Shown: positions 23,437 to 32,729, counted from the stretch's first letter. The stretch is 49,956 nucleotides of DNA from a virus (IMGVR_UViG_3300035698_021428), one strand, 5' to 3'. Notes: generated by a model not told the origin, from the sequence alone. Made by a program: numbers and translations.

Positions 23437-26127
23437 ATGCAAGACAATGATTCCGGCGCAATCCGAGGATCATCAGGCGATCTTTTGATCCCTGAAGGTT
23501 CATATGCTCATTTTTAAGGACTAACAACTGGCGCAATTTCGACCAAGGTTGGGCCTGCAAGCGTTTCGCAATCGGGGCAAGAACGTCCTGTTGCGTTCGA
23601 TCCAGCAAGGCGACAATTCATTGAAGTTAGCCGAGAAAGTTCGGTCAAACTCAATGTTATCGCTGATGAAACCAGTTATGTTATTCTTTCAAATCCGTGC
23701 ATTGCAGTCGCAGACGGCGATGACCAGCTTATTTTTCCAGGATCTTCGGACAAGATTCCCAATCAAGGTCTAGAGAGCGGTCGAAAAGTTGTGGTTCATG
23801 GACCTGTCGAATTTTCGCTTTGGCCTGGACAGACTGCAGAAGTTGTCCCGGGTCATGCTCTTCGCTCAAATGAATATCTTGAACTTGTTGTTTATGATGC
23901 TGATGAAGCAAAAGCCAACTGGGAATCAGCCTCCGTTGTTGAGACCAAGAAAACTGGCGGCGATAAAGAAGATAAAGATGATACGCAGGTTACGTCTACT
24001 GCCCCTGCTGATCTTCTTATGGGACAACGATTGGTTGTCAAGGGAACTGAGGTTTCATTCTATCGTCCTCCAACTGGTATACAGGTTGTTCAGAACGAAG
24101 ACAATATCTTTATTCGACAAGCTGTTTCCCTTGAATTACTTGAATACTGTATTCTTATCGACGAAAATGGCAACAAAAGGTATGAGAAGGGACCAGCAGT
24201 TGTTCTTCCTCGTCCATCTGAACGATTTGAAAAAAGCTCTAGAGGCAATAGAAAATTTAGAGCCATTGAGCTTCAAGACCAGGCAGGCGTTCATATCAAA
24301 GCGCTCAAGACCTACCAGGATGACGACGGAAAAGATCGCAAAGCTGGTGATGAATTCTTCTTGACGGGCAAAGATCGTCCTATCTACTACCCTCGCGAAG
24401 AAGAAGCCGTTATTCCTTATAGCGATGGCGAAAAGATTCACTTCGCTGTTGCGGTTCCCAAGGGGGAAGGCCGCTACGTTATGAATAAGACCACCGGTGA
24501 GATCGCAACGATCATCGGCCCCAAGATGCTTCTTTGCGATCCGACTAATGAAGTCATCGTTCGTCGCATCCTTACTGACAGACAAAGTAATGATTGGTAT
24601 CCTGGTAATGATAACTCTAGGCAATACAATCGCAATCTTCGAGAGATTCAGGAAGCTGCAGGAACGGCTGGTGATTTTGTTGACGATACATCAACACGGC
24701 AGGCAGCAACCAGGGGGCTTCATTCGCTGCGAGAAAAAGGCAATCCAAGAGTAGGCGGAGCTTCGTTCTCAAGTATGTCCGCTTCCGCCGGATCGGAACG
24801 AGGTTTTGAAAGCTTCGAACAAGCTGGTTCAGCAATGATGGGAGAACTAGATCGGCCATCAAGCTATACAGAACCCAAAAGCATTACTCTTGATACACGT
24901 TTTGCAGGAGTTCCTGGTATTGAGCTTTGGACAGGCTACACCGTTATGGTCGTTGACAGAGAAGGAAACCGCCGAATCGTCAGCGGTCCAACCAATATTC
25001 TGCTCAATTATGACGAGTCATTAGAAATCATAGAACTTTCTACCGGCAAACCAAAATCAACAAAAGGATTGATTCGCACAGTATATCTTCGCAGAGATAA
25101 TAATAAGGTTTCCGATTATGTTGAAGTTGAGACAAAAGACCATGTGAAAGTACAAGTAAAACTGTCATTCCTGGTCAATTTTGTTGAAGACAATCCTAAT
25201 GACGATCAGGATGATACCGATTATCAAGAGCGTTGGTTTGCTAGCGAAAACTATGTCAAGCTTCTTTGCGATCATGTTCGCTCGATTCTTAAGGGCGAAG
25301 CTAAAAAGCACGATATCAATAACTTTTATATCAACTCAACATCTATCATCAGAGATATCATTCTTGGTAATCGTCAGGAAGATGGCAGAACAGGTATGTT
25401 CTTTGAACATAATGGTATGCATGTTATCGATGTTGAGGTTCTTGGAACAGAAATTCTTGATCACAGCATTGCTTCGCTACTTACTGGCTCTCAGCGAGAA
25501 GCAGTTGAATCAAGTATTCGTCTTCAGTCTGCCGAAAGAACGCTTAATGTAACTGAGCAAATGGAAGCGATGTCTCGTAAAGAAGCAGTTGCTAAGAATG
25601 AGACCAAGAAGCACGCACACGATCTAACGATAGAAAGCATTGGAAGAACTCTGAAGGAGTCCCTAGCAGACATATCTTCAGAACAAGACAAGTCCGTTCA
25701 TAGGCTTACTGCTCGTACTGCCGAAGCTGAAGCTACTAAAATGGCAAACGTTATTGAGGCCGAAGCTGCGGTCGCAGGAAGCGAGATTGAGCGAGAAGAT
25801 CAGAAACTCGATCATGAACAGAAAATCTTAGAAGCAGAAGAAATAGCTAGGCTTGACAAGGAAGCGATTGAAACCGAAGTCAAGGCCACAGTTGATAAGC
25901 TCAAGGCCCTTGAAGGTTCGGGGTTGACCGACGTTCTTGCTACGCTTGGTCGAGAAGACTTCTTGACCCGTATAGCTGAATCCAGCAATCTTGAACGATT
26001 GATTGGCGGAGCTAGCGTCCAAGATACTTTGACCGGAATTTTCGGCGTTGAGTCGCCTATTGCTAAGGCGTTCGTTGCTATCAAGGCAGGAAAGCCGCTT
26101 GCTCAATCTTTGCTCAATAGCGACTAG
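23437..26127 (+). CDS. Major Vault Protein (MVP) homologue, ~896 codons, with an in-frame TAA at 23515-23517
   Basis: SD ggagaa then ATG 23437; MVP-repeat-like segments (TKVGPASVSQSGQERPVAFDPARRQFIEV; KAGDEFFLTGKDRPIYYPREEE matches MVP GDEWLFEGPGTYIPRKEVE); shoulder/cap-helix-like C-terminus (IDVEVLGTEILD..., long coiled coil, ...TLGREDFLTRIAES); listed ORF begins at GTG 23791 but homology continues upstream in the same frame across the TAA; ends TAG-TAA in tandem. Confidence 0.7.
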
Positions 26128-26158
26128 TAACGGCTGATATCAGCGATGATACGATTCA

Positions 26159-26188
26159 GAGCCTCCGTCTTTTGGCGGGGGCTCTTTT
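26159..26188 (+). terminator. rho-independent terminator
   Basis: gagcctccg...cgggggctc followed by TTTT. Confidence 0.55.
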
Positions 26189-26302
26189 ATTTGTGTATCA
26201 TGTGAATAAAATATATGATAGAATAAACTTTGTACTAAAAGGCGGACAAGGCGCTGCCACTGACGAGGAAAATGTGCCGATGGGATAGTAGAACAATAAA
26301 CT

Positions 26303-30700: not shown

Positions 30701-30722
30701 AGACAAAAGTACAGGAGTAGTT

Positions 30723-30977
30723 ATGAATAGCGATAAAAAGAATATGCCAACAAATATGGCATATCGAGATGTAGACTGGTCTATTGTTTATGAAGTAGAG
30801 AAAATTTGCACGGTTAGCGAAACTATTGTTATCAATTTTATCAACGGCAAAAGTTTTCGTGTTGCGCTACCAGGGGTTTTAATGAAGGCTATGATTCAAC
30901 ATGGTGTAGATAAAGCCGAAAAACTCTTCATTGAACAAGACCTTGATCGGGATGATAAAGAGCACGGGCTTTACTAG
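30723..30977 (+). CDS. hypothetical protein (84 aa)
   Basis: SD aggag. Confidence 0.45.
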   Translation: MNSDKKNMPTNMAYRDVDWSIVYEVEKICTVSETIVINFINGKSFRVALPGVLMKAMIQHGVDKAEKLFIEQDLDRDDKEHGLY

Positions 30978-31079
30978 TTAATATCTGCTCAAATCGTCAA
31001 AAACAAGCCACTGACGATCATCTGGTGAAGTCTTTTTGGATAGAATAACGTTTTCGATTCCTAGATAAGAAAGACCCTA

Positions 31080-32729
31080 ATGGCAACCAAACTTGGAAAA
31101 GGCGAGTATCCCAGCGATCATTCGCCAGAAGACTTTAAATGCTTTGGCCCTCCTGCTCAGGAAGACGGTCAGTTTGACGGCATGATGATGGCTGACATGG
31201 GCTGCTTCAAGCAAGATGGTACAGATTCCAACAAATTCTACCATGGCGCAGTTGTTCAATCCAAAAAAGATGATAGCTGGTATGCCTACTATGAATGGGG
31301 CAGAACTGGGAAAGGTTCTTCTGATAAGCAATTCGTTTGTTGTTCGTCGAAAGAAGAAGCTGAACAAGTATTCTGCAAGCAGATGCACTCCAAAAATGAC
31401 AAGCGAGGCGAATGGGTCAAGATAGGCAGTAAAGACATTCTAAGAGCGAAGACAGGCAAAGACTGCTACCTTATCCGTCCGCTCGCAAAGCGATCTCATG
31501 GCCTTCCAGACGCTCAGACAATCGTCCATGACGATAGCGGCAAAGCTGGCAGCGCCGTCGCTAAGAAAACAACCAAAAAGACCGGAAAGAAAACCAGCAA
31601 AAAGATTGCTAAGAAAAAATCAAACGTTGATCCAAAGACTCTTAGTCTTATGAAGGATATGAACGTTGCAGCGGTTGAATTTACTCGCTCGCAGGTTGAT
31701 AGCGATGCAGTCCCAACTCAAGGCGTTATCGATGAAGGCAGAGATGTTCTTATCGAAGCGGAAAAAAGAGTTAAGAAAATTGGATCAAAGCTTGAAGAAC
31801 AAATTAGCGATAGAGACCTTCGAGATCTAACGTATCATCTCTATTCTCGAATCGGGAAGCCAAAGCCTCTCAATACGCTTGAATCTGCCTGGATTCTTTC
31901 TCAAGACAACATCATGCGTTGGCGAATGGACCTTGATACATTTGAGCAGGCATTATATGCTCTTGACCTAGGCATTGGCAGCGATACTCAGAATACCTTT
32001 GATCCGTTCAATGGCATGAATATTGAGATGATTCATCTCGACCCGACTAAAACGGCTGAAGGTCAATTTATTCACAATTGGATGCCTGGCGCAACGAAAA
32101 ACGTCCACGGGCACGTTGGCGACATGAGTATTGTCAACGCATGGGGCGTTCGTCAAACTGATTTTGCACCAAAATTTGAAGCAACTGCTGCAAAGATTGG
32201 TAATCGCAATTTCACCCCATCTGACAAACCTATCAAGCAGCCCCGAAAACGATCTGATATCTCGCCAGAAATGGCTAAACTATTCGATCAAGCAAATGTC
32301 AATCTCTTATTCCATGGAACAAGATCTGTCAATGTTCCTGGCATTCTTCGCACAGGGCTAAGGCTCCCCAGAGAGCTTGTTGGAGTTGTCCTTACTGGCG
32401 CAATGTTTGGACCCGGTATCTATTGGGCCGATGATTGGAAAAAATCAGACGGTTACACTTCTCGACCAGGAACTTATTGGTCAAGAGGCGGGGGACAGGT
32501 CAAAGGTCGCAAGGCTTTTATGTTTGTTGCCAATGTTGCTCTTGGCAATCCTCATATTGCTCGCGGTCCTCAAGGATATACTGCTCCGCCGAAAGGTTGC
32601 GATTGTGTTGCAGGTCTTGCTAATAAGAGCAGCGTAGCCAACAACGAATGGATTGTTTACGACAGTATGCAAAATTCTCTTACATATCTTATTGAATACG
32701 AAGTTTCAGGCAGCAGCCGTCGCTGGTAA
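31080..32729 (+). CDS. poly/mono(ADP-ribose) polymerase-like protein: WGR domain, Lys-rich linker, helical regulatory region, PARP catalytic domain (549 aa)
   Basis: WGR YYEWGRTGKGSSDKQ; catalytic H-Y-E: LFHGTRSVNVPGILRTGLR (H-G-T), GPGIYWADD (Tyr), NEWIVYDSMQNSLTYLIEY (Glu), matching PARP1 LWHGSR / GKGIYFAD / YNEYIVYD. Confidence 0.8.
   Translation: MATKLGKGEYPSDHSPEDFKCFGPPAQEDGQFDGMMMADMGCFKQDGTDSNKFYHGAVVQSKKDDSWYAYYEWGRTGKGSSDKQFVCCSSKEEAEQVFCKQMHSKNDKRGEWVKIGSKDILRAKTGKDCYLIRPLAKRSHGLPDAQTIVHDDSGKAGSAVAKKTTKKTGKKTSKKIAKKKSNVDPKTLSLMKDMNVAAVEFTRSQVDSDAVPTQGVIDEGRDVLIEAEKRVKKIGSKLEEQISDRDLRDLTYHLYSRIGKPKPLNTLESAWILSQDNIMRWRMDLDTFEQALYALDLGIGSDTQNTFDPFNGMNIEMIHLDPTKTAEGQFIHNWMPGATKNVHGHVGDMSIVNAWGVRQTDFAPKFEATAAKIGNRNFTPSDKPIKQPRKRSDISPEMAKLFDQANVNLLFHGTRSVNVPGILRTGLRLPRELVGVVLTGAMFGPGIYWADDWKKSDGYTSRPGTYWSRGGGQVKGRKAFMFVANVALGNPHIARGPQGYTAPPKGCDCVAGLANKSSVANNEWIVYDSMQNSLTYLIEYEVSGSSRRW

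Follow-up and report, generated by a model that had tools for sequence, protein, structure and literature searches.

Eukaryotic vaults are ribonucleoproteins in which an MVP shell is combined with PARP4 (vPARP), TEP1 and vault RNA, and their function has gone 40 years without resolution. Recent work links the human cage to NAD+/ADP-ribose and PARP4: NAD+/ADP-ribose is a ligand of human MVP, and a PARP resides in human vaults (PMC12280208; 10.64898/2026.05.01.722283), with a pocket for the ligand in MVP and PARP4 enclosed by the cage (PMC12280208). Bacterial MVP homologues are known in Myxococcota, Cytophagales and Cyanobacteria (bioRxiv 10.1101/872010), and phage MVP was reported earlier for the gut Caudoviricetes ctOa11 and ct2Ri15, in which vPARP and TEP1 were not found (bioRxiv 10.1101/2023.11.10.566534). 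PARP enzymes of the WGR-PARP_reg-PARP type are described for Herpetosiphon aurantiacus and Clostridioides difficile CD160 (PMC8120803, PMC5966428), and PARP-like genes have already been noted in jumbo phages, e.g. XacN1 (PMC7824862). A phage that truly paired MVP with a PARP would be a small system for testing the vault-PARP link.

Here we analyse a 49,956-nucleotide stretch of viral DNA (IMGVR_UViG_3300035698_021428), referred to below as the window. It looks like a part of a huge phage genome of ~0.5 Mb. Relatives of its PARP are located on IMG/VR viral contigs of 340-533 kb and in the GenBank 'uncultured phage' LR756511 (595 kb), and the window carries 13 tRNAs, a tmRNA and aminoacyl-tRNA synthetase genes, which together point to the huge-phage origin. 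The original prediction placed an MVP homologue ~5 kb from a 549-aa PARP, with a tmRNA and small genes in between, and proposed a vault-like pairing of the two. All of these genes were re-found; MVP and PARP are both on the + strand and 4,952 bp separate the MVP stop from the PARP start. The locus is organised as follows.

20070-21881, + strand: PAS/HisKA/HATPase histidine kinase (Pfam)
21790-22302 and 22305-22745, + strand: two receiver-only response regulators (Pfam)
23037-23366, + strand: small conserved ORF of 109 aa, directly 5' of MVP
23437-26127, + strand: bacterial-type MVP gene of 896 codons with a TAA at codon 27 (Pfam; profile against structures)
26158-26185, + strand: terminator-like hairpin with a 12-bp stem, 8 GC pairs and a T tail, 31 nt after the MVP stop
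26303-26655, + strand: tmRNA gene (ARAGORN; Rfam RF00023)
26670-26687: terminator-like hairpin 3' of the tmRNA
26945-27337, + strand: hypothetical gene (phrog_3163)
27344-28564, + strand: hypothetical gene, 406 aa, conserved in the closest relative
28757-30064, + strand: phosphate-selective porin O/P homologue (Pfam PF07396)
30092-30126: terminator-like hairpin with a 15-bp stem, 3' of the porin
30198-30977, + strand: three small ORFs of 82, 84 and 84 aa with homologues in L001/L015
31080-32729, + strand: WGR/helical/ART PARP homologue, 549 aa (Pfam; profile)
32744-34927, + strand: 727-aa orphan-family gene, starting 14 nt after the PARP stop codon
34994-35441, + strand: 130-aa ORF, then a terminator-like hairpin (35416-35441)

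The closest relative, REL1, was obtained by joining L015 to L001. Homologues of the kinase and response-regulator flank (20070-22745) are found in the same order upstream of its MVP in L015, and the 109-aa ORF, which has no Pfam match, has a 43% identical homologue there at the same position. We suggest that the neighbourhood of MVP and PARP is probably explained by shared ancestry in a variable gene island and not by a vault-like working pair.

Judged by its sequence, the window MVP is a true homologue with vault repeats, an SPFH-like shoulder and a cap helix. In Pfam, MVP_shoulder (PF11978) scores 88.2 bits against a cut-off of 25, and the repeats score 29.7 bits for Vault (cut-off 27) and 34 bits for Vault_3 (cut-off 28.8). 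The MVP profile matches the solved rat and human MVP with E=4.6e-44, and the SPFH-like shoulder stretch alone matches solved MVP with E=1.8e-30; the repeat regions and the cap helix align with rat MVP. The AF2 model has repeats of beta structure, a shoulder of mixed alpha/beta fold and a cap helix of ~150 residues, which is a single helix at 649-798 (model numbering) with short helices after it; the N-terminal half is rich in beta and is modeled with lower confidence. The protein is 55% identical to the intact 915-aa P0001 and 42-46% identical to many Myxococcota MVPs, and it nests among bacterial and phage sequences. Unlike in ctOa11 and ct2Ri15, a PARP is located 5 kb away, the phage is of ~0.5 Mb, and MVP has a premature stop.

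The MVP frame starts with the ATG at 23437, with a GGAG 8 nt upstream, and stops at 26127; however, it is interrupted by an in-frame TAA at 23515-23517 (+), so that the longest uninterrupted ORF is 23791-26127 (778 aa, GTG start). A nonsense mutation, a variant within the population and a sequence error are all possible origins of the TAA. If it is real, MVP would be dead in this genome, only the intact PARP would be functional, and the 'pair' would be a remnant; we regard this as a serious possibility, but lean somewhat against it. The TAA replaces a near-invariant Gln, with CAA to TAA being a single C-to-T change, and the next canonical in-frame start lies 118 codons 3' of the original ATG. 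No UAA-reading suppressor tRNA was found, only CUA anticodons, and no other window gene with homologues in the fetched loci has a genuine in-frame stop, meaning one that is internal and on the sense strand. At the same time, no further stop breaks the remaining 869-codon frame, its sequence is well conserved, and both the start codon and the Shine-Dalgarno are preserved, which agrees with a mutation of very recent date, a variant present in a minority or an error of assembly or sequencing.

The PARP is recognised in Pfam by its PARP domain (PF00644, 74.8 bits) and WGR domain (PF05406, 31 bits, cut-off 22). Its family profile is collinear with the WGR, helical and ART domains of PARP1; the match to the PARP1 helical domain at profile positions 215-357 is weak (domain E-value 0.0035), and Pfam PARP_reg is undetected. 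The H-Y-E triad is intact (H412, Y448 and E523 in the motifs LLFHGTR, GIYWAD and NNEWIVYD) and the translation has a Lys-rich linker at ~residues 168-190. The predicted architecture was recovered, with the helical region less certain, as was its difference from vPARP: PARP1 and PARP2 match best and PARP4 less well, while WGR and PARP are the only domains detected in the protein, with no VIT, MINT, vWA or BRCT. It ends 26 residues past E523, right after the catalytic domain.

The probable three-part architecture and the triad make this enzyme similar to the bacterial WGR-PARP_reg-PARP proteins and the jumbo-phage PARPs. Unlike these, it belongs to a distinct and very abundant huge-phage family, which has a conserved 45-residue Cys-containing N-terminal motif in addition to the Lys-rich linker, and no PARG or macro domain partner was found in the window. 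There are >810 homologues, many on contigs of 0.37-0.6 Mb, and the best 120 of them are full-length with 47-71% identity. As the N-terminal motif is common to all, the PARP has no feature specific to the MVP-bearing genomes. To call the two genes 'eukaryote-flavoured', as was done originally, is an overstatement, since bacteria and phages have members of both families in abundance.

MVP is located 5-11 kb upstream of PARP in the window and in five further related metagenomic genomes, with gaps of 5.0, 11.1, 5.2, 6.9, 5.2 and 6.8 kb. Across the six genomes identity goes down to 42% for MVP and 52% for PARP, and the intervening genes are turned over; the persistence of the order is above the pure-chance expectation. 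Nearly every testable phage MVP of the immediate clade has a PARP downstream. The comparison of gene neighbourhoods, which was proposed with the prediction, gives a divided answer: the two genes do co-occur in relatives, but the PARP profile finds a match in none of 80 bacterial MVP loci and in only one of 80 IMG/VR viral MVP loci (L017). MVP is not within reach in 12 of 13 other viral PARP loci, and L002-L013 and L198 have PARP with no MVP within 10 kb. The sister MVP clade (L100, L101) has no PARP within 10 kb. The GenBank phages LR756500, LR756501 and LR756503 have MVP without PARP, and LR756511 has PARP without MVP; the comparison at the level of whole genomes covers few complete genomes.

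One reading of the six genomes is a minimal phage vault, in which the MVP cage would recruit or be modified by the neighbouring PARP, like PARP4 in eukaryotes, and during infection NAD+/ADP-ribose chemistry would be tied to a protein compartment. We consider it unlikely. The same-strand co-location despite substantial divergence speaks for it, as do the NAD+/ADP-ribose pocket of human MVP with its enclosed PARP4, the GKPK core of the 'keyhole loop', which is invariant in phage and bacterial MVPs, and the NAD-related genes in these islands: NMNAT-like genes (CTP_transf_like in L097, L098 and L197), NAPRTase in L198 and NADAR in L101. However, most of the human NAD-pocket residues are not conserved here (R507, P508, H509, R511, L517, D521, F522 and W545), and MVP is interrupted in this genome. 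The enzyme is PARP1-like, with no C-terminal extension; most PARP loci lack MVP, 80/80 bacterial and 79/80 viral MVP loci have no PARP beside MVP, and the GenBank huge phages have either gene and not both. The other vault components are also missing: no TROVE/TEP1-like, vWA or NACHT proteins are present among the window ORFs scanned with Pfam, and an Rfam gathering-threshold scan of the whole window returns tRNAs and tmRNA only, with no vault RNA or Y RNA. Unlike in the eukaryotic vault, the MVP-PARP link is not conserved beyond one phage sub-lineage, and the proposed vault-like pairing finds no support apart from the co-occurrence in relatives. Its broader form, a marine huge-phage sub-lineage with a minimal prokaryotic vault, where an MVP cage works with a WGR-PARP, joined in some relatives by NAD-salvage genes, we hold to be quite improbable. 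If true, such a vault may keep NAD+/ADP-ribose chemistry in a compartment, or buffer it, against the NAD-depleting defences of the host, and would offer a simple and tractable counterpart, or a forerunner, of the way MVP and PARP4 associate in eukaryotes.

Transcription signals also bear on the relation of the two genes. The interval between them has three strong hairpins with T tails (26158, 26670, 30092), which suggests that MVP and PARP belong to separate transcription units. No strong hairpin is found between 30126 and 35416. The three small ORFs at 30198-30977, with no Pfam match, may share the transcription unit of PARP, and the 727-aa gene is probably co-transcribed with PARP here. The product of the latter has no match in Pfam, PHROG or NCBIfam, and its model has none among solved structures; it is an orphan huge-phage family without a known fold. 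It was originally described as lacking a recognisable family, which holds, and as a candidate partner; its adjacency to PARP is sporadic: it adjoins PARP in 3 of 16 loci and is absent beside PARP in the closest relative, where the 130-aa ORF is directly 3' of PARP.

The island character of the region is seen from the genes around PARP. Among the genes tracked, the porin is the most widely shared upstream neighbour of PARP (L001, L002, L003, L005, L012, L013, L097 and L098), and the porin-PARP block is kept without MVP in L002, L003, L005, L012 and L013. The F2 family abuts PARP in L006 and L007 and is ~1-2.5 kb from it in L008 and L011, while in REL1, L097 and L099 it is located upstream of MVP. 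Hence, in REL1 and L097 (the L099 contig does not reach PARP), F2 and PARP are separated by 10-17 kb of variable genes, including MVP, the tmRNA, the porin and the NMNAT-like gene. The MVP tree agrees broadly with the PARP tree, which suggests vertical inheritance: each groups the window, REL1, L097 and L098 in one clade and leaves L017 outside it. L197 falls in the window clade in the PARP tree; its MVP is not placed.

The tmRNA (Rfam RF00023, 129.6 bits; tag peptide ANSNPLRIAA) raises another reading, in which phage MVP would belong to an RNA-centred repair or protection system with RNA (tmRNA or tRNAs), not PARP, as the partner, echoing the bacterial rtcB-MVP operons and SPFH/Band-7 scaffolds. 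Rtc RNA-repair operons consist of RtcR-controlled rtcB/rtcA, often with Ro60/TROVE and Y RNA. In Myxococcota the recurrent neighbours of MVP are RtcB and RtcR, not PARP, with MVP directly 3' of rtcB and RtcR nearby, and this order links prokaryotic MVP to an RNA-repair context. Of the 80 bacterial loci, 11 have RtcB as the gene next upstream of MVP, on the same strand, and 20 have RtcR within 10 kb. The tmRNA is 3' of MVP in the window, L015 and L197, L198 carries RlaP and a Band_7/SPFH gene upstream of its PARP, and the ribonucleoprotein nature of eukaryotic vaults would fit as well. Nevertheless, we think this reading has little chance of being right for the phage: unlike in the Rtc operons, no rtcB or rtcR is present in the window or the related phage loci, no tmRNA is near MVP in L097, L098 and L017, the window has neither vault nor Y RNA, and, with tRNA and tmRNA genes found all over these genomes, the MVP-tmRNA adjacency is expected by chance.

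Hence, we return to shared ancestry in a variable island and suggest the following scheme. The phage would have a genome of ~0.5 Mb, rich in tRNAs, tmRNA and accessory genes. PARP, present throughout this phage lineage, would be a WGR/helical/ART enzyme of the bacterial or PARP1 type. By analogy with PARP1 and the Herpetosiphon and Clostridioides PARPs, it may be switched on by nucleic-acid ends via WGR and, with NAD+ as the substrate, may modify both itself and other proteins with ADP-ribose in infection. MVP would be a bacterial-type vault shell protein, carried by a sub-lineage in the variable island upstream of PARP, and may build a vault-like cage by self-assembly inside infected cells. 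The two genes would be expressed from their separate units, with no sequence feature tying PARP to the cage, and they would be neighbours because the island beside PARP is inherited vertically, with gene gain and loss.

The comparative evidence suggests inherited synteny, which makes the locus of more modest value than a phage vault would be. With it, the MVP and PARP families already known from phages and bacteria gain huge-phage members, and MVP and PARP genes are both shown to be common outside eukaryotes. The recurrent prokaryotic neighbour of MVP is rtcB/rtcR, and this may be a better lead to the function of the vault protein.

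The MVP and PARP genes are found near each other, on the same strand and with MVP 5′ of PARP, in six genomes, namely the window and five relatives. The co-location is real, and conservation of the gene neighbourhood, proposed as a check, bears it out, as the two genes do co-occur among related genomes.

MVP-PARP gap in the six genomes
Window: 4,952 bp
L015/L001, two stretches of the closest relative: 11.1 kb
L097: 5.2 kb
L098: 6.9 kb
L197: 5.2 kb
L017: 6.8 kb

Phage MVPs have already been reported (10.1101/2023.11.10.566534), with neither vPARP nor TEP1 found in the same phages. 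Known as well are bacterial MVPs (10.1101/872010) and the PARPs of jumbo phages and WGR-PARPs of bacteria (PMC8120803, PMC7824862). A literature search returned no earlier report of MVP and PARP together in one phage.

Main genes of the window
23437 (ATG)-26127, + strand: MVP frame, GGAG 8 nt 5′ of the start; Pfam MVP_shoulder (88 bits), Vault_3 and Vault
23515-23517, + strand: in-frame TAA interrupting the MVP frame (CAA to TAA)
31080-32729, + strand: PARP, 549 aa; Pfam WGR and PARP; triad H412/Y448/E523

The profile of the window MVP matches solved rat and human MVP (E=4.6e-44) across the repeats, the shoulder and the cap helix. The AF2 model, with beta-rich repeats, an alpha/beta shoulder and a single 150-residue helix, has the predicted fold of the vault architecture. 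Searching viral contigs with a single MVP sequence gave no match, and an alignment query was needed to find the MVPs. Of the residues that PMC12280208 lists for the human MVP NAD+ pocket, phage and bacterial MVPs retain the core of the G-[RK]-P-K loop alone; the residues beyond it are not kept, and a conserved human-type pocket is rejected.

The start codon and Shine-Dalgarno sequence of MVP are intact and the 869 codons after the TAA are open, the earliest canonical start 3′ of it being GTG 23791. In an alignment with 11 homologues the TAA codon falls on a near-invariant Gln. No other genuine in-frame stop occurs in those window genes for which the fetched loci supply homologues. A nonsense mutation of recent date could account for it, as could a minority variant or an error in the sequence. 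Recoding is rejected as the explanation of the TAA, since the two suppressor tRNAs of the window both read TAG and the other genes with homologues in the fetched loci are free of internal stops. Nothing in the window points to general recoding, as TAG still closes 11 of its 53 ORFs. Similar CUA tRNAs occur in L001, L002 and L017.

The window encodes a tmRNA and 13 tRNAs, two of which have a CUA anticodon; it also carries aminoacyl-tRNA synthetase genes and a mosaic set of accessory genes. Relatives of its PARP sit on viral contigs from IMG/VR, 340-533 kb long, and on the 595-kb GenBank ‘uncultured phage’ LR756511; the closest relative is a 498.6-kb contig, whose two stretches overlap by 8,910 bp at 100% identity. 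Given this translation-gene load and the huge contigs of the relatives, we take the window to belong to a huge phage. Ten of the tRNAs lie within 12 kb (2026-14150), and several, at 82-88 nt, exceed the usual length.

Translation and accessory genes of the window
649-1803: class II (Asp/Lys/Asn-type) aminoacyl-tRNA synthetase
7453-7553: tRNA, 101 nt, found by Rfam only and missed by ARAGORN, possibly owing to an intron inside
11860-12300: HisRS-like fragment, 146 aa
18579-19538: PHO4-like ORF, weak, under the Pfam cut-off
20070-22745: PAS histidine kinase and two receivers
28757-30064: porin O/P
35848-38157: PhoD-like phosphatase with Fn3/CHB domains
40895-41428: metallophosphoesterase
42649-42720: amber-reading tRNA (CUA), labelled ‘Pyl’ by ARAGORN
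43646-44377: histidine phosphatase
45505-45577: amber-reading tRNA (CUA), labelled ‘Pyl’ by ARAGORN

Six of these entries (the PHO4-like ORF, the kinase with its receivers, the porin, the PhoD-like phosphatase, the metallophosphoesterase and the histidine phosphatase) form a phosphate-flavoured set, which may help the phage to acquire phosphate as auxiliary genes.

The PARP family profile is collinear with the WGR, helical and ART domains of PARP1, and PARP1 and PARP2 outscore PARP4. Neither Pfam nor the profile alignment finds a domain past the ART domain. The identical PARP protein has no entry on record, and a 12-kb megablast query against GenBank phages gave no match. The PARP has more than 810 homologues, and a search for PARP traits peculiar to the MVP-bearing genomes revealed none.

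The region is a run of + strand genes, and the interval from MVP to PARP is occupied by a true tmRNA, a porin O/P homologue, two hypothetical genes and a trio of small ORFs. Of the six genomes with both genes, three have a phage-encoded tmRNA just 3′ of MVP.

tmRNA genes 3′ of MVP
Window 26303-26655, + strand: tag peptide ANSNPLRIAA
L015 13972-14323: tag peptide ANSNTLRMAA
L197 5145-5494: tag peptide AEAPLLMAA

MVP, the tmRNA and the porin each have a strong terminator-like hairpin on their 3′ side (at 26158, 26670 and 30092, respectively), and none is seen in 30126-35416; hence PARP, the 727-aa gene p727 and the flanking small ORFs could form one transcription unit. Judged from sequence, MVP could belong to a separate one. 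The hairpin scan overall is not enriched over shuffled sequence, therefore this reading is suggestive only. No TROVE, vWA, PARG or macro proteins are found in the window, nor any vault RNA or Y RNA by Rfam.

The p727 gene (32744-34927) had been put forward as a candidate partner. Its product matches no known family; it has 116 unnamed homologues, mostly from large phage-like contigs, and its family has 182 representatives among 1.84 billion proteins. The predicted model is confident (pLDDT 83.5) and lacks a structural neighbour among solved and viral structures. Its C-terminal domain is beta-rich and contains numerous His, Arg, Asp and Glu positions that are invariant in the family. The gene directly follows PARP only in the window, L002/L182 and L014/L185; the closest relative has no p727 next to its PARP, and 12 of the 15 viral p727 loci are without PARP. 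Adjacency this sparse shows that p727 is no fixed companion of PARP, and a partnership is not demonstrable. p727 is an orphan family confined to huge-phage-like contigs.

NAD- or RNA-repair-related genes are found in the relatives’ counterparts of the MVP/PARP islands.

Genes in the counterpart islands
L198 575-8059: RlaP, Band_7/SPFH, NAPRTase and MazG+CTP_transf_like, 5′ of PARP
L097 16347-16829: CTP_transf_like, between MVP and PARP, possibly NMNAT
L098 16852-17364: the same
L197 7215-7724: the same
L101 16740-17165: NADAR, 4 kb 3′ of MVP

The recurrent neighbour of MVP in bacteria is rtcB, which encodes an RNA ligase. In 11 of 80 bacterial loci, all in Myxococcota genomes (L118, L133, L134, L138, L143, L147, L148, L151, L153, L156 and L175; about 9.8-10.0 kb in most), it is the gene immediately 5′ of MVP and shares its strand; RtcR lies within 10 kb of MVP in 20 of the 80. 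A full-text literature search found no paper tying bacterial rtcB to MVP. In L021 (12609-13811), an IMG/VR ‘viral’ MVP locus, rtcB lies directly 3′ of MVP, so some IMG/VR MVP contigs may be bacterial or carry the bacterial operon.

Beyond the six genomes the MVP-PARP association is lost. Bacterial MVP is abundant (2,384 matches, 417 genome stretches), and the PARP family profile scores no match in 80 bacterial MVP loci, most of them from Myxococcota, and matches L017 alone among 80 IMG/VR MVP loci. The sister MVPs to that of L017, in L100 and L101, have no PARP within 10 kb, and L002-L013 and L198 have PARP with no MVP within 10 kb. Among GenBank phages, those with MVP (LR756500, LR756501, LR756503) and those with PARP (LR756511 and several jumbo phages) share no member.

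Gene-family mapping shows the backbone to be conserved, with an island of variable genes immediately 5′ of PARP. Family F2 directly adjoins PARP in L006 and L007, and in L008 and L011 it lies about 1-2.5 kb away. It is 5′ of MVP in L097 and the closest relative, where variable genes fill the 10-17 kb from F2 to PARP; in L099 it is likewise 5′ of MVP, where the contig stops short of PARP. The order in L017 (MVP, F21, F8, F49, F22-F24, PARP) is that of the MVP-less L003 and L012. The porin neighbours PARP in more genomes than MVP does; thus, conserved proximity in the phage lineage does not count as a sign that the two act together. In broad outline the MVP tree agrees with the PARP tree, as fits vertical co-inheritance with losses; two separate gains are also possible.

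Proximity aside, no test backs the vault-like functional pairing that the original prediction raised as a possibility; we consider a functional MVP-PARP link specific to the phage lineage unlikely. The co-location of MVP and PARP is probably inherited inside one huge-phage sub-lineage.
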